Assembly (NCBI GenBank): GCA_015062445.1
Contig: SUUQ01000007.1
Coordinates: 9,831 to 73,830, forward strand
DNA from: Alphaproteobacteria bacterium
GTDB taxonomy: Bacteria; Pseudomonadota; Alphaproteobacteria; Rs-D84
Length of the DNA stretch: 64,000 nucleotides
Reading direction: 5' to 3'
In this document: positions 2,344 to 42,842 of the stretch, one piece after another
Numbering within the stretch: the first letter of the stretch is position 1
Layout: each line of letters begins with the position of its first letter
The notes under the pieces: generated by a model
What the model was told of the DNA's origin: nothing
The model's input: the letters and a program-made list of their open reading frames with translations, nothing else
Database searches by the model: none
Position numbers and translations under genes: made by a program

Positions 2344-3606
2344 ATGGCGGAAAGGTTTTATCTTTGCATTGATTTAAAGAGTTTCTTTGCCTCGGTCGAA
2401 GCGGTTGACCGTGGGCTGGACCCATTTACAACAAACCTGGTGGTGGCGGACCCGTCACGGGGGCGGGGTTCGGTCTGTCTGGCGATAACGCCGGCGATGA
2501 AAGCTCTGGGGATTCGTAATCGTTGCCGGGTCTTTGAAATCCCGCGTGGGGTCGAATACATCACCGCCATGCCCCGCATGAAAAAGTATATGGAGGTATC
2601 TGCCCAGATTTACGGGATTTATCTGCGCTATATCTCGCCCGAAGACATCCATATCTATTCCATTGACGAATGCTTTATCGATATCACGCCTTACTTGAAA
2701 ATGTATAAGCGGTCGCCCAAAGAAATGGCGATAATGCTGATGGATGCTGTGCGGGATGAAACGGGCATATGCGCCACCGCCGGCATTGGCACGAACCTAT
2801 TTTTGGCCAAGGTTGCGCTGGACATCACGGCCAAGAAAGTCCCCGACCATATCGGATACTTGGATGCGGAATCGTTCCGGGAACACCTGTGGCATCATCG
2901 GCCGATAACAGACATCTGGAACATCGGGGCGGGCATTGCACGACGACTGGAAAAATACGGTGTTTATGACCTGTATGGGGTGACGCAGATGCCGGCTGAA
3001 ACCCTGTACAAAGAATTCGGCACAAATGCGGAATACCTGATTGACCATGCGAACGGCATCGAGCCATGCACGATTGCCGACATTCATAATTATCAGGCGA
3101 AATCCCACTCCCTGTCCAATGGCCAGATTCTGTTCGAAGACTATAACTTTGACGACGCGATGATTGTGATGCAGGAAATGGTGGATAACCTGGTCTTGGA
3201 ATTGGTGGAAAAGAACCTGGTGGCGGATGAAATATCACTGGCCGTGGGGTATTCACGTGATATGCGGCGGGCAAGTGGGGGCAGTCGTAAATTGCCAGCG
3301 CACACATCGTCCTATAAATCATTGGTGGCGGAATTTGTGCGCCTGTATCGGGAAACAACCGACAAACGCACGCCGATACATAAATTGACGGTTGGACTGG
3401 GGAATCTGGTCGATGCGGATACGGTGCATTTGCAACTGGATTTATTTGCGGACACAAGGGCGGACGAACGCGAAAGCAAACTGCAACACGCATTGTTGGA
3501 TATCAAGGGCAAGTTTGGCAAAAACGCCGTCCTGCGTGGCATAAATTATCACGAGAAGTCCACCGGTCGCAAACGTAATACTTTGGTTGGGGGACACAAT
3601 GGCTGA
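2344..3606 (+). CDS. Y-family translesion DNA polymerase (UmuC/DinB-like)
   Basis: CIDLKSFFASVE, YSIDECFID, TAGIGTNLFLAKVA and IWNIG motifs; C-terminal QLDLF clamp-binding motif. Confidence 0.93.
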   Translation: MAERFYLCIDLKSFFASVEAVDRGLDPFTTNLVVADPSRGRGSVCLAITPAMKALGIRNRCRVFEIPRGVEYITAMPRMKKYMEVSAQIYGIYLRYISPEDIHIYSIDECFIDITPYLKMYKRSPKEMAIMLMDAVRDETGICATAGIGTNLFLAKVALDITAKKVPDHIGYLDAESFREHLWHHRPITDIWNIGAGIARRLEKYGVYDLYGVTQMPAETLYKEFGTNAEYLIDHANGIEPCTIADIHNYQAKSHSLSNGQILFEDYNFDDAMIVMQEMVDNLVLELVEKNLVADEISLAVGYSRDMRRASGGSRKLPAHTSSYKSLVAEFVRLYRETTDKRTPIHKLTVGLGNLVDADTVHLQLDLFADTRADERESKLQHALLDIKGKFGKNAVLRGINYHEKSTGRKRNTLVGGHNG

Positions 3607-5697: not shown

Positions 5698-8600
5698 ATG
5701 GCTTTGTTCAATAATAAAATTCAATCGTTTGATAATATTAACAATCGTCTGGTTGATGATTTGAAGGCGGAAATTAAAAAGCATTCCAAGTTATCCATAG
5801 CGGCAGCTTGTTTTTCAATATATGCATATCAAGATTTAAAGAAACAGTTGGAATCTGTTGATGAACTGCGCTTTATTTTTACGTCACCAACCTTCCTAGG
5901 GGCAAATAATAGTAAAGAACAGCGTGAATTCTATATACCACGTTTGGAACGTGAACAGAGTCTGTATGGGACAGAATTTGAATTACGTTTGCGCAACCAA
6001 ATGACCCAGAAAGCCATATCCAAGGAATGCGCCGAATGGATTAGAAACAAAGTTCAGTTTAAGTCAAACAAGACAAATCGTCTGATTCAGCCCTTTATTA
6101 ATATTGATGATAAATATACTTATTTGGGAATTAACGGCTTTACGACAACAGATTTGGGAACAGAAAAAGGCAATGCGCTGGCGATGTTTATAAATCGTCT
6201 TGAGGCAGAAAACAGCAAACAGTATCTTAATCTGTTTAATGAAATCTGGAATAATTCGGAACAGCTGGAAGACGTTAAGCAAAAGATTTTAGAGCATATC
6301 GAAACAATTTATGCAGAAAATGCCCCAGAATACATTTACATGGTCACCTTGTATAATATTTTCAAAGAATTTTTGAATGATATTTCAGATGACGTTTTGC
6401 CAAATGAGGCAACAGGATTTAAACAAAGTGAAATTTGGAACAAGTTGTACACATTCCAAAAAGACGCGGCACGTGACATTATACATAAACTGGAAAAGTT
6501 TAATGGGTGTATATTGGCTGACTCGGTTGGGTTGGGTAAAACGTTTACTGCGCTGGCGGTTATTAAATACTATGAATGTCGTAACAAGAGTGTCTTGGTG
6601 TTGTGCCCAAAGAAGTTACAAGATAACTGGACAACGTTCCGTGAAAATTATTTAAACAATCCTGTGGCCAAAGACAGATTGCGTTATGATGTTCTGTATC
6701 ATACAGACTTGTCTCGTGAACGTGGTTTATCTGGCAGTATAGATTTGGGTAAAATCAACTGGGGTAATTATGATTTGGTCGTAATTGATGAAAGCCATAA
6801 TTTCAGAAACGGTGGAAAAACGACCGTAGATGAAGATGGTATTGAATCTTACAATCGCTATAATCAGTTAATGGAAAAGGTTATCAAAGCCGGGGTTAAG
6901 ACCAAGGTTTTGATGTTATCTGCAACACCGGTGAATAATCGTTTTGTTGATTTGAAGTATCAGCTGGAATTGGCATACGAAGGCGCCGAAGATGAAATTA
7001 ACGACAAGCTGAATACTAAAAAAGGTTTAACAACGATATTCAATAACGCCCAGCGTGCATTTAATGATTGGAGTAAGTTGCCAGAAGAAGAACGTACAAC
7101 AGAAGCGCTGTTGGGGCGTTTGGATCAAGATTTCTTTGAAGTATTGGATTCTGTTACAATAGCACGCAGCCGCAAGCATATTGAAAAAAGTTATAATATG
7201 GCTGAAATCGGCAAGTTCCCAACCCGTCTGGACCCAGATAACAGATATCCTGCCATTACGTTGGATGAGTCATTGGGGCTAAATTATGATGATATCTTTT
7301 CTAAATTGGAACAGTTGTATCTGAGTGTTTATTCGCCTTCTAAGTTTATTTTTCCAAGCAAATTGGAAAAGTATGAAAAAAAGTATGGGAAAAAGGCAGG
7401 CAAGGGTATTTCGCTGACGGGACGTGAAATGGGGACCCGTAAATTGATGGCAATCAATTTGATGAAACGTTTGGAAAGTTCCTGGTATTCCTTTAATGAA
7501 ACCGCTAAATCGATTGCAACTAAGATAGACAGCGCAATATCTGCCATAGAACAATTTAAAAAAGCAAAATCAGCCCGTGGATTTAAGTTTAGCATCTTTG
7601 GTATTGCCGAGGACGAGGAAGATATTGATACAACCTATGGCGATTACAGTATCGATTTTAACGATATGGATTATGAAACCTGGCTGAAAGAACTGCAAAG
7701 CGACCAGGAAGTGTTCGCCGAAATTCTGCGTTTGTTCGGTCAGATGACCCCAGAACTTGATAATAAGTTGAATGAATTAAAGGCGATTATCAGACATAAA
7801 ATAGAAAATCCATTAAATGCAGACAATAAAAAGGTTTTGATATTTACCGCTTGGGCAGATACCGCACGATATTTGTATGACAACCTGTCTGAATATTTGC
7901 GTGAAGAATTTGGATTAAATACAGGTGTTGTCACGGGTGATATATCGACCAGTGATTCAACGATAAAACGTAATGGAGACAAGGGCAAGTTTGATTTTAA
8001 TGAATTGCTGACCATGTTCTCGCCAGTATCCAAAGATCGTGATAAGTTAAACAATATACCGTCTGGTGACATAGATGTTCTGATTGGTACGGACTGTATC
8101 AGCGAAGGTCAAAACCTGCAGGACTGTGATTATATGGTAAACTTTGATATCCATTGGAATCCGGTTCGTATTGTTCAGCGCTTTGGACGTATTGACCGTA
8201 TCGGCAGTCGTAACGACAAAATCCAAATGGTCAATTTCTGGCCAGAACGTGAATTGGATAAATATATCGACCTGACAAACCGTGTTCAAAACCGCATGGT
8301 TGGTGTTGCGGTTGCAGGGGCCGGTATAAACGTTATTGGTCAAGACCAGGAATTACAATATCGCAAGGCACAATTAGAAAAAATCCGTAAAGAAACCCCA
8401 GATTTAGAAGATATGAACACCGGGGTGAATATCATGGATTTGGGGCTGAATGAATTTAGGTTAGAGGTTGTAGATTATCGTAAATCGCATCCTGAAATAG
8501 AAACGGCGGCCCGTGGTCTGCACGCGGTTGTTGCAGCGACGCCAGATATGCCTGCTGGGACCATTTTTGTCCTGCGTAATGTGAATAATGGCGACAAGAT

Positions 8601-9590: not shown

Positions 9591-11407
9591 TTGAAAAATT
9601 GAAACTGGAACAAAATCCAATGTCCCCAGTATTAGAAACATTGAAACAGGTTTGTCCTGGTGCTATTAATGAAGATGGAACTGTGGATTTTGATGTTTTA
9701 AAAACGGAATTGTCGGACAGTATAACCGAAGGAAAACGCGAAAGATATGAATTCGATTGGGTTGGTAAAGAAAATGCCAAGCGCGAGTATAAACGTAAAA
9801 TCAGAAAAACATTACGTCCAGTTGTGGCGGATTCTAAAAATTGGGAAACAACCAAAAATCTGTATATCGAAGGCGACAACCTGGATGCGTTGAAATTATT
9901 GCAAAAATCATACCTGCGCAAGGTTAAAATGATTTATATCGATCCTCCGTATAACACGGGAAATGATTTTGTGTATTGCGATGATTTTGCCGAAGACTGC
10001 AAAGAATATTTGGATAAAAAGGAAGTGTGTGATACAGATGGTAATCGTTTGTTTGTTAATAAACGCGATACGGGACATTATCATTCAAACTGGTGCAATA
10101 TGATGTATCCGCGCCTGAAGATGGCACGTGATTTATTAACAAATGACGGTGTTATTTTTATTTCAATTGATGACCACGAAGTTGCCAATTTGAAAAAAAT
10201 TTGTGATGAGATTTTTGGCAACGAGAGATTTGTTGGTATGTTAATTTGGAAAACCAAGACCGCTGCAAAGGGGGTGCCGACAAAAAATATGTTAGTTACC
10301 AACCATGATTATATATTGGTATACCAGGGCAAATCACAATTTAGATTTAATGGCGAAGACAGAGATGTTAGTAAATTCAGTAACCCAGATAATGACCCAA
10401 GGGGTGCATGGAAGGCAGACAACATGAAATCAACTGTGTCAACAAATGTTTTTTCTATAACAGATCCCAATACTGGGAATGTGTTTACAAAAAATTGGGC
10501 TTTTTCTAAAGAATCAATAGACAAAATGATCGCTGAAAACAAGATAATATGGCCTTCCTCTTCAGATGGTACACCAAGACAAAAAAGATTTATGAACGAA
10601 ATGACCAATGATACAACACCTTTACGAAGTCTTATCGGGGAATTTCAATCAGAAACCGCCACAAATAAATTAAAAGAGTTATTTGGTGGAAAAAAATTAT
10701 TTGATTTTCCAAAACACGTAGATTTAATAAAGTTACTGGTTAAGCAAGCGACAGAAGCCGATTCTTTAATACTTGATTTCTTTTCAGGTTCTGCGACGAC
10801 TGCCCATGCAATTATGCAACTAAATGCGGATGATGCAGGAACCAGAAAATACATAATGGTTCAGTTCCCAGAAATCCTCGAAGAGAATTCCGAAGCTTTT
10901 AAGGAGGGGTATACAAATTTGTGCGAAATCGGTAAAGAACGTATCCGTCGTGCCGGTGAAAAAATAAAGGCAGAAACCCCAGATAAAGATCTGGACATAG
11001 GATTCCGTGTTTTACGTGTCGATTCAAGTAATATGAAAGACGTTTATTACAAGCCTTCTGAAACGTCCCAGACAGGATTGCTGGATGCTGTAGATAACAT
11101 TAAAAATGACAGAACTGATATGGATTTGCTTTTTGGTGTTATGATTGATTGTGGCTTGCCACTGGATATGCCAATTGAAACCAAGGAAGTAAATGGCAAA
11201 AAGTATTATGTGGTAAATGGCAGTGATGCTTTGGTTGCGTGTTTTGAAGAAAATATTTCAGAAGATTTAATTCGTGAAATCGCAAGCCATAAGCCAATGT
11301 GCGCCGTTTTCAAGGACTCTTCATTTGCCGAAGCCAAGGACAAGGTAAATGTTTCAGAAATCTTCAAAAGCATATGTGGCGATGATAAAGCCCTGAAAAT
11401 ATTGTAA
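9587..11407 (+). CDS. mod: Type III restriction-modification methyltransferase (Mod)
   Basis: IEGDNLDALKLL, IYIDPPYNTG and ILDFFSGSATT motifs; ATGA overlap. Confidence 0.93.
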   Translation: MIEKLKLEQNPMSPVLETLKQVCPGAINEDGTVDFDVLKTELSDSITEGKRERYEFDWVGKENAKREYKRKIRKTLRPVVADSKNWETTKNLYIEGDNLDALKLLQKSYLRKVKMIYIDPPYNTGNDFVYCDDFAEDCKEYLDKKEVCDTDGNRLFVNKRDTGHYHSNWCNMMYPRLKMARDLLTNDGVIFISIDDHEVANLKKICDEIFGNERFVGMLIWKTKTAAKGVPTKNMLVTNHDYILVYQGKSQFRFNGEDRDVSKFSNPDNDPRGAWKADNMKSTVSTNVFSITDPNTGNVFTKNWAFSKESIDKMIAENKIIWPSSSDGTPRQKRFMNEMTNDTTPLRSLIGEFQSETATNKLKELFGGKKLFDFPKHVDLIKLLVKQATEADSLILDFFSGSATTAHAIMQLNADDAGTRKYIMVQFPEILEENSEAFKEGYTNLCEIGKERIRRAGEKIKAETPDKDLDIGFRVLRVDSSNMKDVYYKPSETSQTGLLDAVDNIKNDRTDMDLLFGVMIDCGLPLDMPIETKEVNGKKYYVVNGSDALVACFEENISEDLIREIASHKPMCAVFKDSSFAEAKDKVNVSEIFKSICGDDKALKIL

Positions 11408-33735: not shown

Positions 33736-33813
33736 AACAAAACCGCAGGTTGAAAGACCGGCGGGAAATAGAGTTTAGGATGGTTGGCAGAGCGGTCGAA
33801 TGCGGCGGTCTTG
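33736..33813 (+). repeat. 78-bp direct repeat: leader plus 5' half of tRNA-Ser, ending in the anticodon loop
   Basis: Matches 33891-33968 apart from a few leader bases; tRNA part 33778-33813 identical up to CTTG. Confidence 0.93.
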
Positions 33814-33932
33814 CATACGAGTAAGTAAGGCAAACGCAGTGTGGCCGAACGCTAACGAGTGGTGAGCAGCACCGCCAGGTGCGGTCAGCGAACAAAACCG
33901 TAGGTTGAAAGACCGGCGGGAAATGAAGTTTA

Positions 33933-34022
33933 GGATGGTTGGCAGAGCGGTCGAATGCGGCGGTCTTGAAAACCGTTGTGGGGGCAACTCCACCGGGGGT
34001 TCGAATCCCTCACCATCCGCCA
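33933..34022 (+). tRNA. tRNA-Ser (TGA)
   Basis: GGATGGTTGGCAGAGCGGTCGAATGCGGCGGTCT-TGA-AAACCGT...long variable arm...GGTTCGAATCCCTCACCATCCGCCA; 90 nt. Confidence 0.96.
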
Positions 34023-34064
34023 TAAAAATCAAATCGGCTTTATGCCGATTTTATTTTGTAATTA

Positions 34065-34081
34065 TGGACCAATTTTGTCCA
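34065..34081. promoter_or_regulatory. Putative operator TGGAC-N7-GTCCA, copy 1
   Basis: tggaccaattttgtcc is identical to 38642-38657; lies upstream of the island operon. Confidence 0.65.
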
Positions 34082-34126
34082 TTTTGTTCCCTATACTGTA
34101 TTGTGAAATAACAAACAGGATAGAAA

Positions 34127-34480
34127 ATGAGAGCAAAAAATTTAAAGTTTACTTATAAAAATGTATGTAATTTTATTGCATGGTTAACCCAGTATTATCG
34201 CAACAAGTATCAAAATGCACCCATGGCGGAACTGGATGGTATGCCCATTGATAAAATTGCCCAGGAACGTTGGGATTCTGTTATGGGAAACACTCGGTTT
34301 ATTTTGGGTGTAACGGGCGAAACTGATTTGGCAAATCCAGCGAAAAAACAGTTATGGTTAAATTTCGAAGAATATGTTCGTGATTCTGACGGCGATGACT
34401 GGGCATTATCCCAAGATGCCGAACCAATCCCCGCCGAATTATTTAATCAGTACATCAACAGTTGTGCATTTGCAGGATAA
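34127..34480 (+). CDS. Hypothetical protein, first gene of island operon
   Basis: 117-aa ORF, SD AGGA. Confidence 0.65.
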   Translation: MRAKNLKFTYKNVCNFIAWLTQYYRNKYQNAPMAELDGMPIDKIAQERWDSVMGNTRFILGVTGETDLANPAKKQLWLNFEEYVRDSDGDDWALSQDAEPIPAELFNQYINSCAFAG

Positions 34481-34494
34481 AATTGGGGTGCAGT

Positions 34495-35745
34495 ATGAAT
34501 ATATGTGTACATCGTGGTACGAACGAGATTGGTGGTAATTGTATAGAATTGGCGACTGCGTCCAGCCGAATTTTGTTGGATGTTGGTTTGCCTTTGTCAT
34601 CCATGGTTGATAACAAACCATTGGATGAATATCGGGTGCCCGTATCGGGGCTGTATGTGGACCAGTCCCCAGATATCGATGCGATATTTATAACGCACGG
34701 GCACCCCGACCATTATGGATTGTTGCCGCTGATAAATCCAAAAATTCCAGTTTACATGACGCGTGCAGTCCGTCAGACACTGTTGCAGATTCAGCCCCTG
34801 TTGCCGGGTGATTTTGATATATCGCACTTAGATATTCGTGAAATTGTCCCCGGTCATCCAGTTCAGGTTGGTGATTTTACAGTTATTGCCCATTTGGTTG
34901 ATCATGCACCTGCATCTGTGTCGTATGAAATATCAGACGGCAAAACCCGTATTGTCTATACGGGGGACATTCGTTTTCATGCGACCATGGCACGTTCATC
35001 GTGGCGATTGGCATCGGCTGCGAAAAATCCGGATTATTTGATTGTCGAAGGTACCCGTTTATCACGCACAGATGACGTTGTCAATGAACGGTATCAGACC
35101 GAAGACGCGGTCTGTGCTGGCATAACAGACCTGTTGCGTGATTCTGGCAAATTGGCATACATCAGTATGTCATCCCAGAACCTGGACAGATTATGTTCTG
35201 TAATCCGTGCATGTTGTCGCACAGGGCGCACATTTGTGATTGACCCATATACGGCGGCACTGTTGGATATATATCATGACTGTTTTCCGTCTGTGCCGAA
35301 TCTGGACATGTTAAAGAACGTTAGAATTTATTACGGCATCAGTGACACAATTGCCGAAAAAATGAAATCTGCCGGCATATTTTATCGGCATAAATTGCAC
35401 AAAATTTCTGCAGATGAAATCCTGGACAATCCGGGGCAGTATGTGATTAAATATAACTGGCGGTTATCAGATTGGTTGGTACGCAATGGTGTGACGGATT
35501 ATAACTTTATTTATTCAATGTGGTACGGCTATATGCACCAGCAGGACACCTGGGCCCCCCACATGGATAAATTGGTTCAGATTCACACATCCGGCCACGC
35601 ATCGCGTGATGCACTGGCCAAGTTTGTTCGGCGAATTGCCCCGAAACAAATTATTCCGGTACACACCGAATGCAAGGACGATTTTGAATCAGTATTTGGT
35701 GTACCATCACTGGTATTGGACGACAATGAAGTACAAAGGTTATAA
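34495..35745 (+). CDS. MBL-fold/beta-CASP metallohydrolase (RNase J-like)
   Basis: HRGTNEIGG, THGHPDHYG, VDHAP, YTGDIRFH, HTSGHA and IIPVHTE motifs. Confidence 0.9.
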   Translation: MNICVHRGTNEIGGNCIELATASSRILLDVGLPLSSMVDNKPLDEYRVPVSGLYVDQSPDIDAIFITHGHPDHYGLLPLINPKIPVYMTRAVRQTLLQIQPLLPGDFDISHLDIREIVPGHPVQVGDFTVIAHLVDHAPASVSYEISDGKTRIVYTGDIRFHATMARSSWRLASAAKNPDYLIVEGTRLSRTDDVVNERYQTEDAVCAGITDLLRDSGKLAYISMSSQNLDRLCSVIRACCRTGRTFVIDPYTAALLDIYHDCFPSVPNLDMLKNVRIYYGISDTIAEKMKSAGIFYRHKLHKISADEILDNPGQYVIKYNWRLSDWLVRNGVTDYNFIYSMWYGYMHQQDTWAPHMDKLVQIHTSGHASRDALAKFVRRIAPKQIIPVHTECKDDFESVFGVPSLVLDDNEVQRL

Positions 35746-35747
35746 CA

Positions 35748-36758
35748 ATGACACGATTTTTTAATGATAAAATGTTTGACAGATTAACAGGCGGCGATTT
35801 ACATCCGATGGTTCATGCCTTGCAAGATTTGCCCCAGTTGGTATTTATTCCCCGTGGTGGCTATGCGACAATTTATTACAAGGCGGCACGTTTATTCGAG
35901 ATAAAATCTGGTTTACGTAAGTGTAAGTGGATGTTTGGCATTACGAAAAAATATTGTGATAATGCAAAATTATTAGATCTGGACTGGTTTACCAAATGTA
36001 AGACCGATTTAGATTCAAAAGAACAGGACAAGTACAGGTTTAATCTGGATTTATCAAAATGTGATTATGATTTTTGGTATCGTTTTTTTGTCTGCATGAT
36101 GTGCGGTGTAAACATGCATCGTCTGCAGCATCGTGATGCAGAAAAAGAAATTCAACAACGAATAATGACAGAAAACAACACCGCCAGTATCAAAGAACCC
36201 ACAGATTATTTGGTTTTGGATATGGAATATCAGCAGCCCGGTGATCGTTCATACGGTCGTTTTGACATGGTTGCACTGCGGTGGCCTGGACACATGCGGA
36301 AAAATCCCGATTATCAACCTGAATTGGCATTGATAGAGGTTAAACATGGCTCTGGTGCACTGGCGGGTGCATCAGGCATGCAGGACCATTTGAACAAGAT
36401 AGATTGTTTCCGTCCAGATAAGAAATTTTATGATGGTCTGGACAAGATGCTGAACCAGATGCATCAATTGGGGTTGATAAAACTGCATTCCAAGATAAAA
36501 AAACCTATCAAGGTAAATCGTAAAGCAAAAAAACAGTTTATTTTTGCACTGGGTAATTACAGTCAAAAATCACATGAATTGCACAACATCGTAAAACAGA
36601 TGCAGGAACCAAAAAACTATCAGTTGCGTTTTGTGACTTCGTCGTTTATTGGGTATGGTCTGTACGAAGATGGCATGATGACATTGCCCCAGTTCCGTGA
36701 TTTATTGGCGGTATATGATTCTGCCACAGACTGTGGGAATCAGTCGCAGGGGGCATAA
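35748..36758 (+). CDS. Putative PD-(D/E)XK-family nuclease
   Basis: DMEY...GRFDMVAL...LALIEVKHG matches the E..D..ExK catalytic spacing. Confidence 0.6.
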   Translation: MTRFFNDKMFDRLTGGDLHPMVHALQDLPQLVFIPRGGYATIYYKAARLFEIKSGLRKCKWMFGITKKYCDNAKLLDLDWFTKCKTDLDSKEQDKYRFNLDLSKCDYDFWYRFFVCMMCGVNMHRLQHRDAEKEIQQRIMTENNTASIKEPTDYLVLDMEYQQPGDRSYGRFDMVALRWPGHMRKNPDYQPELALIEVKHGSGALAGASGMQDHLNKIDCFRPDKKFYDGLDKMLNQMHQLGLIKLHSKIKKPIKVNRKAKKQFIFALGNYSQKSHELHNIVKQMQEPKNYQLRFVTSSFIGYGLYEDGMMTLPQFRDLLAVYDSATDCGNQSQGA

Positions 36759-36759
36759 A

Positions 36760-37680
36760 ATGGCACAGATTCTGTTAACAGACGTTATGCACGGGTTATC
36801 ACAGGACGCGTTTAATGCACGTTTTCCTGGGTATCGCCGCAAATTGCGTTTCAGCAAACCGTGGGACGACGTCGCACCCGATGGCACAGTTGTCCACCGT
36901 GATCCGCATGAAATGTATCGCACAGGCGATGCCGAGTTTTTACCATCTATCTTAACGGTTGGCGATGGAGCCCAGCGGCGTGTTGTTGAAAATGACATCA
37001 CGTTTCAGTTTATTGAAATCCGCCCACACAAATGGTTGTTTGTTGGTGCATATAAAACAATTGACCTGAACGGGGTTGGCATAAATCCATACACTAAAAA
37101 GTCATATCCCTATGCCAACGCAGAATACTTAAAGGAATTTGATTGTTTTGCGGGTCGTGTGGTTGTTGACTTTACCAATTCGCCCCAGCGTTTTTACTAT
37201 ACCAGTGCCGACATAATTGACCGGATTGTTGTATCCGAAGTTCTGTCGGACACATATCTGGAATTATCAGATGATTTTCCGGGCTATGACCGTGTATCTC
37301 GTGATTACAGGGCATTATCGGTCTGTATGACCAAACCTGATTGGAAAAATGCCTTGTCGGGTGTTTATGGTGTCTATGTTATAACAGACGGTGCCACCGG
37401 TCGGCAGTATGTTGGATCTGCCTATGGTGAAAATGGTGTTTATGGTCGCTGGTCTGTATATTTGGCAAATGGCTATGACGACAGTGACAAAGACTATCCG
37501 AACAAGCGGTTAAAAGAATTAGTAAAAAAACACGGCATGGATTATGTTCGTGAAAACTTTACCTATACATTGATAGAGATTTTTCCGAAAAATGACGTTG
37601 GTCGTGAACGTGCATTGGCCCGTGAATCCTACTGGAAAGAAGTTTTACAAACACGTCAATTCGGTTATAATGATAACTAA
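36760..37680 (+). CDS. GIY-YIG nuclease (C-terminal domain)
   Basis: GVYVITD..TGRQYVGSAYG..G..GRW..Y and RESYWKEVL.TRQFGYNDN. Confidence 0.88.
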   Translation: MAQILLTDVMHGLSQDAFNARFPGYRRKLRFSKPWDDVAPDGTVVHRDPHEMYRTGDAEFLPSILTVGDGAQRRVVENDITFQFIEIRPHKWLFVGAYKTIDLNGVGINPYTKKSYPYANAEYLKEFDCFAGRVVVDFTNSPQRFYYTSADIIDRIVVSEVLSDTYLELSDDFPGYDRVSRDYRALSVCMTKPDWKNALSGVYGVYVITDGATGRQYVGSAYGENGVYGRWSVYLANGYDDSDKDYPNKRLKELVKKHGMDYVRENFTYTLIEIFPKNDVGRERALARESYWKEVLQTRQFGYNDN

Positions 37681-37686
37681 ATAAAC

Positions 37687-38076
37687 ATGATAAAAAAAAG
37701 GAATCATAAAATGTCTTGGCTGAAACGAAATAAATGGTTGGTTATAATTTGTACATTAATTGTTTGTATGTTTGGGGCATATTTTGGTATGCGTTCACGA
37801 ATTTCGCATATTGCAAATACGGTTTGTCTGGTTCAGTACGATGATATGTTATCTGACATGTCGACCACGGCAGAAATTGCAATCCTGTTACAGGACGGCC
37901 GTGATGCATTTTGTGATTGTTATGTTTCAGGGCTGATGCCGCATTGGCATCGCTATGCATTTATGTCCATTGAAACGATGGTGCCAGCAATGATATCTGA
38001 CGGTGCCGAACCATCTTATTCATGTTTGGATGTTTTTGCTGACATTGTGTATGGGGCAGGGGGCCAGGGTAAATGA
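37687..38076 (+). CDS. Hypothetical protein with N-terminal membrane anchor
   Basis: WLVIICTLIVCMFGAYFG segment. Confidence 0.55.
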   Translation: MIKKRNHKMSWLKRNKWLVIICTLIVCMFGAYFGMRSRISHIANTVCLVQYDDMLSDMSTTAEIAILLQDGRDAFCDCYVSGLMPHWHRYAFMSIETMVPAMISDGAEPSYSCLDVFADIVYGAGGQGK

Positions 38077-38612
38077 GCGAATCTGAAATAACAGAACTTC
38101 AGAAATTATTGGTGTCTGCGCATTCGATAAACTCTGGCTATGGTCGCTGGGATTCTGCCGCATGGGTTGTAAATATGACCGACCCCGATGTTGTTCTGCC
38201 TGGGGAAATTTGGCGTCCCCACCCGGACTTTGCCGATATTTATGTCAGCAGTTATGGTCGCATCAGGTTGGGTGATGATAAAATCGTCCCCCAGGTCGAA
38301 GCAACACGTTCATGGTTTGATGGCATTATTGCGGCATTGCCGATAAATAAAGACCTATTAGATCGATATGATATTGGATACGCGTGTGTTTGTATAAATG
38401 GCAAATGGAAATTGGTCTATGAATTGGTTGCCCAGACATTTATTGGCCCCCGTCCTGCGGGTGCAATAATTCATCACAAATCGAACGATGGCTGGGACAA
38501 TCGTCCTGAAAATCTGGTCTATGTATCCGCCGATGCACATCGTGAAATTCATCGACAGCGCGGCAGGAATTGCCCTGATTACATGCCCAACGTTTATATG
38601 GCGACAAAATAA
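38073..38612 (+). CDS. NUMOD4-HNH endonuclease
   Basis: EIWRP...YVSSYGRIR (NUMOD4); LVAQTFIG...IHHKSNDGWDNRPENL (HNH). Confidence 0.85.
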   Translation: MSESEITELQKLLVSAHSINSGYGRWDSAAWVVNMTDPDVVLPGEIWRPHPDFADIYVSSYGRIRLGDDKIVPQVEATRSWFDGIIAALPINKDLLDRYDIGYACVCINGKWKLVYELVAQTFIGPRPAGAIIHHKSNDGWDNRPENLVYVSADAHREIHRQRGRNCPDYMPNVYMATK

Positions 38613-38641: not shown

Positions 38642-38657
38642 TGGACCAATTTTGTCC
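38642..38657. promoter_or_regulatory. Putative operator, copy 2, overlapping a TTGTCC-16bp-TATAAT promoter
   Basis: Identical 16-mer to 34065-34080; TATAAT at 38674-38679. Confidence 0.65.
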
Positions 38658-38711
38658 GAACTGTTTCCTATATTATAATCAGAAACAAACCATTAACCCC
38701 AGGAATTATAA

Positions 38712-40775
38712 ATGAAACATAACGCGACAATTGCATACTATATAAACAACTTGGCATCGGCGAAGCTGCCGCAAAAGGCCGCAAACAGTTTACTGGACTT
38801 TGCCGAAGGTGTATCCACAGAATTGCTTGGCTATGACCTGTGTGAGCATTGGGGGCTCAGTCCTGATAAAAAGGTTCGCCGTGGTCGTATTCGTATACCG
38901 GTTGATACATCAGATGCGGGAAATACCTCGGACGTTCCCTGCACCCGCAGTATCAAGAAACTGCGTGACATTATGTCAGGTCTGTTGGTGATTGACATTT
39001 GTTCACCTGGTATTGATAAATGCATGGACAGTTTGACCAACCTGTTTGGATTAAATGAAACAGAACGCCGCCTGGTCCAGTTATTTGCAGACAACGTTCG
39101 TGATTCCCAGGTTCGTGCCCTGATACAAGACGTTATGTGTGACAATTTTCGTTACAGAACGTGTCTGGACCTGTACAATCTGGACATGATTGCCGCCATG
39201 TGTGGTCTGTCGTATGCTGCGGTCAATCGTGCGTTGGACCCAGATGGTTTGCTGGTTCGTGCGGGCATATTGGCGATTGACGACAGTGATGGCGAAATAA
39301 CATTAAATCGCTTTATATCCCGTCATCTGACAGATGGTATTACCAGTGTTCCTGAACTAAAGCGTGCCTTATTGGGCAAACCGCACACCGCGGACAAGGG
39401 GCTGGACTTTTCCCATGTTTCAGACAAATACGATTATATTAAATCGCTGATAAAAAATGCCGTTTCATTATATGTCCCCGGTATAAACATACTGATTTAC
39501 GGTGCGACCGGCACGGGCAAGACCGCCATGGCAAAGCACATTGTATCATCGTTGGGGTACGACCTGTATGGTCTGAACACATCGAACAAATGTCGCCAGG
39601 AAAAGAATATAAACCAGTCGTACCTGATGCATGCCCAGCGTATTTTATCCAGCGACTACAGGTCTGTCATCATGCTGGACGAAGCCGAAGACATCTTTCG
39701 CTATAATCCATATTCATCGAATGCCACGTCCAAGTTGTCTTTGAATCAGATGTTGGAACGCAATGCTCGGCCTGTGATATGGCTGACCAACGATATCACG
39801 TGTATCGATCCTGCATATTTACGTCGTTTTACATATTGCTGTGAATTGCCATCACCATCCAGCCAGGTCAAGACCCAAATCTGGTCTGGTATATGTCGCC
39901 GTCACAAATACAAAATATCGGACACAGAATTAAAATCACTGGCGGACAAATACGATGTTGTCCCTGGGGTTATTGACACAGCGGTGCGTGCGGCATGTAT
40001 GACGGGCGATTCTGGTGCGATTGTTCGTACATTGGAATCATATTGTATGGCGACCACGGGCCATATTCCTGTATCGACATCGAATAACATTGTGCCATTT
40101 GACACACGTTTATTGAACACGGACCTGGACATGGAAAAATTGGCCACCCAGATTCAGAATGGCAAATGCCAGAATTTTTCGTTGTGTTTGTATGGTGCAT
40201 CTGGTACGGGCAAATCTGCCTATGCCCGATATCTGGCAGATAAACTGGGGCTGCGTATTATTCAGAAACGTGCCAGTGACCTGCAGGACAAATACGTTGG
40301 CGAAACAGAAAAGCGCATTGCCGCTGCCTTTCGTGAAGCTGCCGAGCAAGGCGCCATATTGGTCTTTGACGAAGCGGACAGTTTTTTGCGTGACAGAACA
40401 CATGCCCGTGCCCAGTGGGAAGTTTCCGCCGTCAACGAAATGCTGACCCAAATGGAAAGCACGAATGTTCCATTTATTTGTACAACCAACCTGATGAACG
40501 ACATTGATCGTGCGGCCCTTCGCCGATTCCTGTTCAAGGTAAAGTATGATTACATGACCATTCCCCAGGTTGTATTGGCATTTTCTGATTTCTTTGATTT
40601 AACGGTATCGGAATCAGACGTTCGCAATTTAACTCATCTGACCCCCGGGGATTTTGCGGTTGTCAAACGTCGTGCAGATATAATGGGCACCACAGACACA
40701 TCAGAACTGATAAACATGCTGTCATCAGAAATGGCGGCCAAGAATATCCGCAATGCCAATCGCATTGGTTTTTAA
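38712..40775 (+). CDS. Tandem AAA+ ATPase (two AAA domains)
   Basis: GATGTGKT/IMLDEAED/LRRF and GASGTGKS/LVFDEADS/ALRRF; ends ..RIGF. Confidence 0.9.
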   Translation: MKHNATIAYYINNLASAKLPQKAANSLLDFAEGVSTELLGYDLCEHWGLSPDKKVRRGRIRIPVDTSDAGNTSDVPCTRSIKKLRDIMSGLLVIDICSPGIDKCMDSLTNLFGLNETERRLVQLFADNVRDSQVRALIQDVMCDNFRYRTCLDLYNLDMIAAMCGLSYAAVNRALDPDGLLVRAGILAIDDSDGEITLNRFISRHLTDGITSVPELKRALLGKPHTADKGLDFSHVSDKYDYIKSLIKNAVSLYVPGINILIYGATGTGKTAMAKHIVSSLGYDLYGLNTSNKCRQEKNINQSYLMHAQRILSSDYRSVIMLDEAEDIFRYNPYSSNATSKLSLNQMLERNARPVIWLTNDITCIDPAYLRRFTYCCELPSPSSQVKTQIWSGICRRHKYKISDTELKSLADKYDVVPGVIDTAVRAACMTGDSGAIVRTLESYCMATTGHIPVSTSNNIVPFDTRLLNTDLDMEKLATQIQNGKCQNFSLCLYGASGTGKSAYARYLADKLGLRIIQKRASDLQDKYVGETEKRIAAAFREAAEQGAILVFDEADSFLRDRTHARAQWEVSAVNEMLTQMESTNVPFICTTNLMNDIDRAALRRFLFKVKYDYMTIPQVVLAFSDFFDLTVSESDVRNLTHLTPGDFAVVKRRADIMGTTDTSELINMLSSEMAAKNIRNANRIGF

Positions 40776-40776
40776 C

Positions 40777-40807
40777 AAAAAACAGTGTCATTTGACACTG
40801 TTTTTTT
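40777..40807. terminator. Bidirectional terminator
   Basis: aaaaaacagtgtca-tt-tgacactgtttttt between convergent genes. Confidence 0.8.
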
Positions 40808-41384
40808 AATTTGAGCTTTTCGCACCTGCCTTGACCAGCATTTTATGCAGTCGTTTTGTCGGTGCCAAATCCAGCGGTGTTTTTCCATCTTTGTTTTTCA
40901 CGTTCAGTTTTGCCCCGCAATTAATCAAGAACTGTACTTTTTCATTACTTTTGGCTGCCACTGCATCATGCAGTGGTGTATTTCCCAATTTATTTCGCCG
41001 ATTTATATCTGCGCCTGCATCGACCAGTATTTGCAGTGTTTCCACGTCCCACTGCCAAAAAATTGCATTATTTCCAACCTTGTTAACATGTGTTGCATCC
41101 GCCCCCGCATCCAGCAGCAGTTTTGCAATATCTGGCCCCATTGACATAAACAGCGGTGTTGCCCCTGTAAAGTCCTGGATATTAACATTTGCCCCATTTT
41201 CAATCAGTATTTTTGCCACCGCCACATCATGCACCATGGTCAGTGGCACCAGTTTCGCAGGTGTTCGTGCATTAACATCTGCCCCATTTGCAATCAGTTC
41301 TTTTATCTGTTCGATATCTGGGTGCAGCGACCATGCCGATTCACACAGTTCTTTATTCAGTTTATTCTGTCTTTTTGACACCAT
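40806..41384 (-). CDS. Ankyrin-repeat protein
   Basis: Repeated GADVN/GxTPL(H) motifs. Confidence 0.9.
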   Translation of the reverse strand: MVSKRQNKLNKELCESAWSLHPDIEQIKELIANGADVNARTPAKLVPLTMVHDVAVAKILIENGANVNIQDFTGATPLFMSMGPDIAKLLLDAGADATHVNKVGNNAIFWQWDVETLQILVDAGADINRRNKLGNTPLHDAVAAKSNEKVQFLINCGAKLNVKNKDGKTPLDLAPTKRLHKMLVKAGAKSSN

Positions 41385-42441
41385 TGCATGAATCCTTGAT
41401 TGTTTCCGAACAATTTTTCAACAGTTCTTGATACGTGTCTATTAATTCCTGTGGGGCCAGTGGCACCATTTCACCACTCCACTGGAATATATGATGTGCC
41501 ATTGCCACCATTCCGCCGGCCCGGAATTTTATTGTCAAGCTGCCGTCTTGTTCATTTTCTGTAATTTCCTGGGTTGGGTGAAATTTGTATTTTTTTGCGG
41601 CGGCGGCGATTTTTGGACTGGCCCACCAAACGACATCTTGGATATTATTATCGCTGAACACACCAAAGAACTGTTTTGCATATTCCTGTACGGTCTGTGC
41701 ATTATCCCTGGTAAAGTATTTTCCTGTACGCTTCAGGTTTGTAATATTTTCCAAAATGTACTTGATTGGTGTTTCGGCCATTTCGCCATTATCCCACATT
41801 TCGCACGACACCAGATATGCATTTGAATCCCCGTACATCAGTCCCAATGGGCACACAACATGTTCTTTGACAGTACCGTCTTTTTTTGGATATGAAAACT
41901 TAACGATTTCTTGTTTATATGCGGCATCGGCCAGTGTTTCACGCACATCATCAGACACGTTAATTGTTGCCTGGGGCCCGACATAAACATACACAGATTC
42001 TGGTTTAACCTCGATTTCATCCATTGTGTTTCGATATTCACGATTTGTTCGGCTGACATTTTTTGCGTGTTTATCAAATCGGGATTTCAGTTTTTCATAC
42101 AGCAGCATCAGTGGTTCTGAAATATCTTTGTTTCCGGCCATCTTGATTGCTGTTTTTAATGCCCTCAGTTCGCCATCTTCAATTGTATCTGGGATATCAT
42201 TAACTTCCAGATACCATTTACCTGTTATTTCTTCGCACCAGCACGCATTTTTACCGTATTGCTTTTGCAGTGATTCGATAAATCGATTGACGGTTTTCGT
42301 ATGTGCCATATCACGGCCTGGCACCGCCAACAACGTCTGCATTTCTTGCTTGGTTAAACCTGTTGTCCGCAATTTATTTATAATCTGCAAATGTTCGTAC
42401 TTTTTTTTATGGTCATTTCGTCCGCTGGTCATATTTATCAC
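41362..42441 (-). CDS. WYL-domain transcriptional regulator (wHTH-WYL-WCX)
   Basis: N-terminal HTH (TKTVNRFIESL); VCPLGLMY...AYLVS; QFFGVF; KFHPTQEI..DGSLTIKF; LAPQEL. Confidence 0.87.
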   Translation of the reverse strand: MINMTSGRNDHKKKYEHLQIINKLRTTGLTKQEMQTLLAVPGRDMAHTKTVNRFIESLQKQYGKNACWCEEITGKWYLEVNDIPDTIEDGELRALKTAIKMAGNKDISEPLMLLYEKLKSRFDKHAKNVSRTNREYRNTMDEIEVKPESVYVYVGPQATINVSDDVRETLADAAYKQEIVKFSYPKKDGTVKEHVVCPLGLMYGDSNAYLVSCEMWDNGEMAETPIKYILENITNLKRTGKYFTRDNAQTVQEYAKQFFGVFSDNNIQDVVWWASPKIAAAAKKYKFHPTQEITENEQDGSLTIKFRAGGMVAMAHHIFQWSGEMVPLAPQELIDTYQELLKNCSETIKDSCNGVKKTE

Positions 42442-42452
42442 CTTTGTGTACG

Positions 42453-42842
42453 TTATTCTGTTGCCCCATGTTCGGTCAGTAATTTTCTGATTGTGGCATT
42501 TTCGTTATCTGTCGCATATTGCAGTGGTGTTTGCCCGTACTTGTTTTTTGCCATCACATCTGCCCCATGTTCAATCAGTACTTTTACAATTTCGTCTTCT
42601 TCGTTTGCTGCGGCACTATGCAGTGGTGTATGACCCAGATTATCCTGTGCGTTAACGTCCGCCCCATTTTCAATCAGTGTCTTTGCAATATTGACATATC
42701 CATTACATGCCGCAGCATGCAATGGTGTCATGAACAGATTTGTCCGTGCGTTAACATTCGCCCCATTGGCGATACACCGTTTAACAATGTCTAAATCGCT
42801 GTTTTCGATTGCTGTAAATAATTGTGCGTCTAAATCCTGCAT
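42453..42842 (-). CDS. Ankyrin-repeat protein
   Basis: TPLHAAA, GHTPLHSAA and GQTPLQYA repeats. Confidence 0.92.
   Translation of the reverse strand: MQDLDAQLFTAIENSDLDIVKRCIANGANVNARTNLFMTPLHAAACNGYVNIAKTLIENGADVNAQDNLGHTPLHSAAANEEDEIVKVLIEHGADVMAKNKYGQTPLQYATDNENATIRKLLTEHGATE

Follow-up and report, generated by a model that had tools for sequence, protein, structure and literature searches.

A candidate nuclease pair of a beta-CASP metallo-beta-lactamase and a PD-(D/E)XK-like protein in a tRNA-Ser island with a WYL regulator

Introduction

Several antiphage defence systems, among them Hachiman (the PD-(D/E)XK protein HamA with the helicase HamB), Shedu (SduA) and two-component Shedu variants such as KELShedu, are small and centre on a PD-(D/E)XK-type nuclease whose N-terminal sensing region varies and which works with a partner enzyme. 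Nucleases of the metallo-beta-lactamase (MBL) fold also serve as immune effectors: in the passages that describe them, a trypsin–MBL effector pair occurs in Avs1/Avs2, HamMAB and UG9 (PMC12799240, 10.1101/2025.09.03.673762, PMC9226505), and Cas14 of type VII CRISPR is a beta-CASP enzyme (PMC13069675). In the open-access passages that deal with them, defence MBLs appear only in these trypsin–MBL modules, the ubiquitin-like 6A-MBL system and Cas14. Here we analysed a stretch of 64,000 nucleotides (nt; hereafter, the window) from an Alphaproteobacteria bacterium (GTDB lineage Bacteria; Pseudomonadota; Alphaproteobacteria; Rs-D84; GenBank assembly GCA_015062445.1, contig SUUQ01000007.1, forward-strand positions 9,831–73,830), a gut alphaproteobacterium whose 1.05-Mb genome is 98% complete. 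At 34127–37680 of the window, four consecutive genes encode a small orphan protein, a beta-CASP MBL-fold nuclease (hereafter MBL), a PD-(D/E)XK-like protein (hereafter PDx) and a GIY-YIG nuclease, which a preliminary description had taken together as one candidate multi-nuclease antiphage operon.

We find that MBL and PDx are a separable two-gene module, not part of a four-gene machine. Our preferred reading, which taken as a whole we regard as reasonably likely, is that the interval from tRNA-Ser to nrdG (~34.0–42.8 kb) is a horizontally acquired, WYL-controlled hotspot of three separable modules, one of them an unnamed candidate defence system, arranged in two plus-strand units with the same operator. 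The first module would be MBL with PDx, an unnamed antiphage or antiplasmid system widespread in bacteria and archaea. The second, lying between PDx and the second operator, would be the defence system Uzume (UzuA) with a small protein, p129, and an HNH_3 endonuclease, and the third would join a WYL/WCX regulator to a double-AAA ATPase and recur beside different effectors.

MBL and PDx recur together across bacteria and archaea

The genes for MBL (gene 2; 34495–35745, plus strand) and PDx (gene 3; 35748–36758, plus strand) are the middle two of four co-oriented plus-strand open reading frames separated by gaps of 14, 2 and 1 nt, a layout that was found as originally claimed. In a one-genome-per-species scan of ~185,000 species genomes, with an 11-sequence sub-alignment of PDx as the query, we identified 224 PDx loci and analysed 80 of them; these span many bacterial phyla as well as Bathyarchaeota and Nanoarchaeota. 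In 65 of the 80 loci, PDx has an MBL homologue on its own strand; in 50 the two are within 150 nt of each other, in both gene orders. One locus, in Marinospirillum minutulum, encodes the two as a fused 763-amino-acid (aa) protein. Carriers of the pair in culture include this species (DSM 6287, with the fusion), Citrifermentans bremense R1, Bradyrhizobium manausense BR 3351 and Caballeronia fortuita LMG 29320. Pairwise distances among MBL and PDx sequences are correlated in a mirror-tree comparison (r = 0.62; maximum of 1000 shuffles, 0.30). Within a sample of the phylum, 7 of 401 genomes encode PDx, and each of the five non-self PDx loci that were examined is adjoined by an MBL homologue. Co-occurrence of the MBL and 336-aa genes elsewhere, the test that the preliminary description had set for itself, is thereby borne out.

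The remaining genes of the unit behave differently: in none of the 80 PDx loci did we find UzuA, the HNH gene, p129 or the orphan. The whole island is repeated in L001–L004, which are 90–99% identical to it. At 56% PDx identity, L005 and L006 occupy the same lgt–tRNA-Ser site and hold operator–MBL–PDx with neither the orphan nor Uzume, and with an operator on either side; at 42% PDx identity, L010 carries an 85-aa small gene, then MBL, then PDx. Reciprocally, the Uzume block stands without the pair in L118, described below. Because the pair and the Uzume block each occur without the other, the four-gene set appears to be a recent juxtaposition, and the proposal of a single four-gene multi-nuclease system did not hold.

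In L005/L006 the second operator, GGACAGGTTTTGTCC, directly follows the PDx stop codon and is itself followed by a promoter and a different gene, whose 26 known residues do not resemble the conserved N-terminus of the AAA ATPase; an exact-match scan of JGI metagenomes for a longer L005/L006 contig returned none. We considered an insertion of Uzume between PDx and the AAA gene and set it aside, since the evidence from these loci reaches only to the absence of Uzume between PDx and the second operator.

The pair is a candidate without a name, but its kind is familiar: a small system based on nucleases. Neither of its proteins matches a named system in PADLOC 2.0. The earlier remark that the combination was not recognised as a named system survives, against PADLOC 2.0, for MBL and PDx and fails for gene 4, which matches the named Uzume protein UzuA; a match to a named system had been listed beforehand among the outcomes that would refute the four-gene reading.

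MBL belongs to the RNA-metabolising branch of beta-CASP enzymes

MBL is 416 aa long when counted from its ATG; a TTG at 34462 is also open. Pfam matches it to Lactamase_B_2 (2e-16) and to RMMBL (PF07521, 2.6e-9; 37.4 bits against a cutoff of 21.6), not to DRMBL, placing it in the RNase J/CPSF, RNA-metabolising branch. All metal ligands attributed to this RNase J-like enzyme were confirmed (D29, H68xH70xD72H73, H137, D158, E185, H364/H368 and H390), and motifs 1–4 together with beta-CASP motifs A, B and C are conserved in 54–55 of 55 aligned homologues. Its best NCBIfam matches are aCPSF1, RNase J and Cas14, all far under the equivalog cutoffs (70.9 vs 580, 60.7 vs 400 and 32.5 vs 800, respectively), and no PADLOC model matched it.

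Like the effectors of Avs1/2, HamMAB and UG9, MBL would be an MBL-fold immune nuclease, and it shares the beta-CASP class with Cas14. It differs from Avs1/2 and HamMAB in that no gene of the island encodes a protease domain and its conserved partner is PDx; it differs from Cas14 in that neither CRISPR nor Cas7/Cas5 genes are present. The trypsin-linked MBLs are not described as beta-CASP or RMMBL proteins in the passages on them and are set apart here by that description. The 6A-MBL system, considered as a possible AAA plus MBL system, proved to be a ubiquitin-like system.

Plasmid-borne MBL matches have downstream partners of which one alone is weakly PDx-like (L023, 6e-8); a match on an Escherichia coli plasmid was discarded as an unrelated, ABC-transporter-linked hydrolase. 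At 3264–4458 of L001, which is 93–99% identical to the window, the MBL gene is broken into two pieces of 339 and 75 aa, with a frameshift or small deletion near residues 325–338; the pair may be decaying there, or the assembly may be faulty.

PDx carries an invariant D...ExK set in a PD-(D/E)XK-like domain

PDx (336 aa) has two domains, the C-terminal one PD-(D/E)XK-like by motif and predicted structure. A full HMMER search of 1.84 billion representatives recovered at least 845 PDx clusters (counted at 50% identity) at E ≤ 1e-3, of which 500 reach E ≤ 1e-10; word-index homology searching was nearly blind to the family, giving 3 and 8 matches against these 845. Across 60 PDx sequences, Y43, Y44, N143, D158, E197 and K199 are invariant, and D173 (~90%), E160 and E142 nearly so. 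The N-terminal alpha/beta domain is also highly conserved, with an invariant YY in a NIYYRGG motif and R36, and is a putative sensor or binding domain.

An AlphaFold2 (AF2) model built on the 60-sequence alignment reached a predicted local distance difference test (pLDDT) score of 93.1 and a predicted template modelling (pTM) score of 0.90. It shows the N-terminal alpha/beta domain followed by an alpha-beta-beta-beta-alpha-beta unit, with helices at 131–144 and 225–240 and strands at 154–161, 172–178, 192–200 and 262–269. D173 opens strand 172–178, E197 and K199 lie in strand 192–200, and E142/N143 sit on the preceding helix. In the model, this C-terminal layout is that of a canonical PD-(D/E)XK domain, with the D...(D/E)xK signature on the beta-hairpin of the core. 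Judged by the invariant D...ExK set, PDx is probably itself catalytic.

PDx matched nothing in Pfam, NCBIfam, PADLOC or PHROGs, and a profile of the 60 sequences gave nothing significant against Pfam, PADLOC or PDB sequences. Two of the 60 members matched Pfam PDDEXK_9, at 0.0026. Against PADLOC, the 60 relatives produced scattered single weak matches, none to HamA, SduA or another system model. The earlier PD-(D/E)XK assignment is carried by the conserved motif and the model topology; a significant fold or family match does not accompany them.

A first, low-confidence model (4-sequence alignment, pLDDT 65) was rejected; its Foldseek matches, including those to the Shedu nuclease domain and HamA, were weak and non-significant, and with the high-confidence model neither protein was matched significantly. 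As a small system around a PD-(D/E)XK-type nuclease with a partner enzyme, the pair would resemble Hachiman and Shedu; it departs from them in that partner, a beta-CASP nuclease in place of a helicase or DNA-binding protein.

PDx also occurs without MBL. In L041, L045, L047 and L052 it either closes a type I restriction-modification (R-M) operon, with an overlap with hsdR in L041, or neighbours GmrSD and AAA_16/TPR (STAND-like) genes; elsewhere it stands beside Schlafen/Fic genes. PDx may thus act additionally as a stand-alone or R-M-linked nuclease. A tblastn search of plasmids with PDx found nothing.

UzuA travels with p129 and an HNH endonuclease

Uzume was reportedly introduced as a single-gene defence system by Millman and co-workers in 2022. 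The accessible text on it likewise describes a single-gene GIY-YIG system (10.1101/2024.10.26.620412). Gene 4 (36760–37680, plus strand; 306 aa counted from ATG) is, by its sequence matches, the UzuA protein of this system: residues 75–306 align to positions 55–278 of the 278-position PADLOC model PDLC03973 (3.2e-46), with further matches to PDLC03974 (3.7e-34) and phrog_26160 (2.8e-34). Its identification as a GIY-YIG nuclease was correct (Pfam GIY-YIG, 24.4 bits against a cutoff of 22.6), and the translation shows the GVY...YVG motif and the Arg, Glu and Asn of such nucleases.

The island version differs from Uzume as described in that it is part of an operon in which an unrelated nuclease pair precedes it, its N-terminal ~75 residues fall outside the model, and UzuA is accompanied, here and in L118, by p129 and the HNH protein. 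The 129-aa p129 (37687–38076, plus strand) has a hydrophobic N-terminus and no family match in Pfam, PADLOC, NCBIfam or PHROGs. Next comes the gene for the 179-aa HNH_3/NUMOD4 endonuclease of the phage homing-endonuclease type (38073–38612, plus strand; Pfam HNH_3, 2.8e-9), which matches PHROG HNH endonuclease families down to 7e-17. The related alphaproteobacterial contig L118 (5528–10058) reads operator, 146-aa gene, UzuA (78%), p129 (58%), HNH (54%) and AAA (59%), adjoins a type II R-M system and lacks MBL, PDx and WYL; the p129 homologue lies between UzuA and HNH there, and the HNH homologue keeps the same position. Homologues of p129 at 24% identity stand beside WYL–AAA in L119/L120. UzuA, p129 and HNH may therefore form a conserved block.

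The 117-aa orphan (gene 1; 34127–34480, plus strand) is a lineage-specific accessory gene, matched by nothing in Pfam, PADLOC, NCBIfam or PHROGs and absent from L005/L006 and all 80 PDx loci; it weakly matches (24%) the 85-aa gene that precedes MBL in L010.

A repeated operator and a WYL/WCX regulator

According to the text describing them, CapW-type WYL repressors sense single-stranded DNA (ssDNA; PMC11662680). In the window, a palindromic operator, operator 1 (ATGGACCAATTTTGTCCAT; 34064–34082, plus strand), lies ahead of gene 1 as the preliminary description had noted, with a GGAC-N7-GTCC core and a TTGTCC that forms a −35-like hexamer. The core, GGACCAATTTTGTCC, recurs exactly at 38643–38657 in operator 2 (38643–38679, plus strand), where it overlaps a promoter composed of TTGTCC, 16 nt and TATAAT ahead of the double-AAA ATPase gene. 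GGAC-N7-GTCC is matched three times in the window against 0.32 expected, a number that 0/100 shuffles reach, and operator variants precede cargo operons in L001, L005, L118 and L120. A near-copy, GGACCATTTTTGTCC, lies at 8558–8572 inside the 3′ part of an SNF2-type gene of the window's other restriction island, ~370 nt short of the following gene; with 0.32 matches expected in a window, this copy may be due to chance, or it may be a third site for WYL.

The WYL/WCX regulator of the island (359 aa; 41362–42441, minus strand) passes the Pfam cutoffs for both domains: PF13280 (WYL) at 1.5e-5, 25.3 against 21.8 bits, and PF25583 (WCX) at 2.9e-8, 34.4 against 23.9 bits. Pfam detected no helix-turn-helix in it, and no operator was found in the promoter region of its own gene. 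A 359-aa WYL/WCX gene heads an AAA–MBL–PDx operon in L020 (Zetaproteobacteria), with all genes on one strand, and a cluster of ~359-aa WYL proteins is represented in 6/80 PDx loci. In L119/L120, WYL homologues at 39–43% identity are divergent from the AAA gene.

By analogy with CapW and BrxR (PMC9122588, PMC9122601, PMC11662680), the WYL/WCX protein is the presumed repressor at both operators. The likeness lies in the WYL plus WCX architecture, in a palindromic operator overlapping cargo promoters, and in the WYL gene at the head of the L020 operon. The island protein differs from these regulators in being longer and paired with a double-AAA ATPase, in having ankyrin genes alongside, and in that the operator is missing from its own promoter region; operator binding here is a prediction.

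The WYL–AAA module and its partners

The double-AAA ATPase (687 aa; 38712–40775, plus strand) contains two AAA stretches in Pfam and matches phrog_10401 at 9.5e-94; both of its Walker A/B sets (Walker B glutamates E324 and E554) are invariant in aligned homologues. An AAA ATPase adjoins MBL–PDx in 8–9 of the 80 loci, among them L020, where the order is WYL–AAA–MBL–PDx. Relatives in L119/L120 stand beside lgt with the divergent WYL gene alone, a relative in L117 adjoins a YjiT/YjiV-type helicase system, and on plasmids L109–L116 the family occurs with WYL genes and with DUF2779, PD-(D/E)XK, TM0106 RecB-like, AddAB-like and RtcB genes. We read WYL plus AAA as a portable, apparently undescribed module with different effectors.

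The closest described relative of the ATPase is in Gao_Iet: its second AAA domain resembles IetA (PADLOC, 2e-29; NCBIfam IteA, 96.1 bits). It differs from that system in scoring 96.1 bits against an IteA cutoff of 510, in carrying a second AAA domain and an N-terminal region of ~230 aa, and in that the island encodes no IetS protease.

Two side observations concern the surroundings of this gene. In Zetaproteobacteria, a protein of 129–138 aa with a DxDGT start lies between PDx and AAA (L019, 2892–3281; L027, 5005–5418); by eye it is HAD-phosphatase-like, and Pfam returned no match. On a Sphingobium plasmid (L114), a gene near the AAA gene is annotated as a "5′-nucleotidase".

Defence context of the pair

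Distant pair loci carry integrases, GmrSD and a DruA-like gene accompanied by one for a HATPase; they may also hold a Dnd-type restriction cluster, a guess made from gene sizes alone. Immediate neighbours in the 80 loci include WYL (×4), integrase (×4), transposase, methyltransferase and Metallophos (×6) genes. From this context, in which the defence association is suggestive, we infer a defence function for the pair. Taken in full, the island is a mosaic defence hotspot of an ordinary sort. What stands of the earlier defence reading is a horizontally acquired defence-type island, marked by the WYL/WCX regulator, a known defence gene and the presence of other genes at the corresponding site of a congener; what does not stand is the single four-gene system.

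Metallophos (calcineurin-like phosphoesterase) genes are the commonest immediate neighbour of the pair in these loci (L026–L105; 6 of 131 neighbours scanned) and may be accessory in one clade.

A possible mechanism and its alternatives

PD-(D/E)XK cleavage leaves 5′-phosphate ends, and RNase J/CPSF-type beta-CASP enzymes are 5′-phosphate-dependent 5′→3′ exonucleases as well as endonucleases. In the mechanism that we propose, PDx would recognise and cut invader nucleic acid via its conserved N-terminal domain, giving 5′-phosphate ends, and MBL would degrade 5′→3′ from these ends or cleave transcripts; their adjacency, fusion and co-evolution suggest joint action in a complex. As for CapW and BrxR, the WYL protein would keep both operons repressed at GGAC-N7-GTCC until a damage or ssDNA signal arrives. 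We infer this division of labour, the substrates and the WYL–operator binding. The RNA- and DNA-cleaving arms once proposed for all four genes are plausible, as putative arms, for the pair alone. More tentatively, the pair could be a new, domain-crossing two-gene immune system in which a novel PD-(D/E)XK-type endonuclease and an RNase J-type 5′→3′ nuclease are coupled as a "cut and chew" or a DNA-sensing, RNA-degrading machine, with WYL plus AAA as a portable control or sensor cassette for nuclease effectors (Uzume/HNH, DUF2779, RecB-like and YjiT/YjiV-type).

Should the pair protect against phages or plasmids, a widespread defence system would be added in bacteria and archaea. PDx would bring into defence a protein with neither a family entry nor a recognisable solved relative, and an RNase J/CPSF-type beta-CASP nuclease would enter innate immunity outside type VII CRISPR. 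The WYL plus double-AAA cassette, recurring beside many nucleases, may serve more generally in regulation or sensing. The locus stacks several nuclease modules under one operator in a 1-Mb genome, and its four closely packed genes should not be annotated as a single system.

Several observations weigh against our preferred reading. Foldseek searches of PDB and BFVD gave no significant match of PDx to a solved PD-(D/E)XK enzyme: the best E value was 7.5e-3, to LAGLIDADG enzymes, and the top 50 contained no PD-(D/E)XK nuclease. An hhalign comparison with one HsdR N-domain aligns the ExK motifs at 2% probability. Because neither Foldseek nor profile searches yielded a solved relative, the fold of PDx is assigned by motif and topology. 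The neighbours of the 80 loci are mixed, with many housekeeping genes and a minority of known defence or mobile-element genes, so that a formal defence enrichment is not established. No operator lies in the WYL–AAA intergenic region of L119/L120, which leaves the link between WYL and the operator unsecured. Only ~10% of the pair's loci also have the AAA ATPase, which elsewhere stands alone with WYL (L119/L120) and may therefore be an independent system. Further, the near-identical strain L001 has a frameshifted MBL, and a newer name for the pair may exist, as PADLOC-DB 2.0 dates from 2023 and the literature covered was open-access text.

The pair might instead act by abortive infection, with PDx mainly a sensor or activator and MBL the effector that breaks down RNA of both host and phage and stops growth. 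We judge this unlikely, even though MBL is of the RNA-metabolising branch, the extra conserved N-terminal domain of PDx (YY, R36) could bind a ligand or nucleic acid, and tight WYL-type repression would suggest toxic products. The invariant D...ExK set implies that PDx is probably catalytic itself, and its presence alone in R-M loci without MBL suggests that it is an effector in its own right.

It is more doubtful still that the pair and WYL–AAA are not immune at all and belong to a WYL-controlled regulon for DNA damage, repair or mobile-element maintenance, for example in end processing of broken or transferred DNA. WYL regulators do run DNA-damage responses (PafBC, DriD) and some beta-CASP enzymes are repair nucleases; the plasmid AAA homologues keep company with RecB-like, DUF2779, AddAB-like and RtcB genes, which also have repair-type functions, and housekeeping genes are frequent among the neighbours of the pair. 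Yet the distribution is patchy and crosses domains (7/401 phylum genomes), the island is absent from the congener, and the pair is integrase-associated, stands amid R-M, GmrSD, DruA-like and STAND genes and here shares an operon with Uzume. Given this distribution and context, defence cargo fits better than a conserved repair pathway.

Very improbable, finally, is one four-component system of orphan, MBL, PDx and GIY-YIG nuclease: the 14-, 2- and 1-nt spacing suggests translational coupling, one transcript and one operator-controlled promoter, and the four genes stand together in L001–L004, but repeats of the set are limited to such 90–99% identical strains, UzuA and the orphan are missing at 56% and 42% PDx identity and from the 80 distant loci, L118 has UzuA–p129–HNH–AAA without MBL–PDx, and UzuA matches a system that its accessible description presents as single-gene (10.1101/2024.10.26.620412).

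Borders and layout of the island

The hotspot that we favour begins at tRNA-Ser(TGA) (33933–34022, plus strand; ARAGORN; Rfam tRNA, 56.6 bits), its left border. Gene 1 starts 104 nt after the tRNA ends, in agreement with the ~100 bp given earlier, and both the tRNA terminator hairpin and the palindrome of operator 1 lie in between. The transcription unit runs past 37680 into the p129 and HNH genes, after which come operator 2 and the double-AAA ATPase gene. A perfect 14-nt inverted repeat (40777–40806) follows between convergent genes and is a candidate bidirectional terminator. Two ankyrin-repeat genes flank the WYL regulator on either side: one encodes a 192-aa protein (40806–41384, minus strand; Pfam Ank, 1e-21; PADLOC candidate PDC-M72A, 9e-22), and the other, encoding a 129-aa protein (42453–42842, minus strand), forms the right border, beyond which the core genes nrdG/nrdD follow.

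In the congener, the island is absent and the stretch from tRNA-Ser to nrdG holds an aminoacyl-tRNA synthetase, glycosyltransferases and an outer-membrane protein. At 1360–1650 of L005, the last ~15 nt of tRNA-Ser and its terminator are duplicated ~230 nt downstream, just ahead of the operator of the MBL operon; the duplicate resembles an att remnant left by integration into the 3′ end of the tRNA. At the right border of the island, the window shows no matching repeat of this 3′ end.

Upstream of the intact tRNA, at 33736–33818, an orphan tRNA-Ser leader and 5′ half is broken in the anticodon loop and runs into a GC-rich insert of ~77 nt. The same truncated tRNA-Ser and insert are kept at 1125–1245 of L005, at 56% PDx identity, and this conservation, insert included, argues that the arrangement is not a recent accident.

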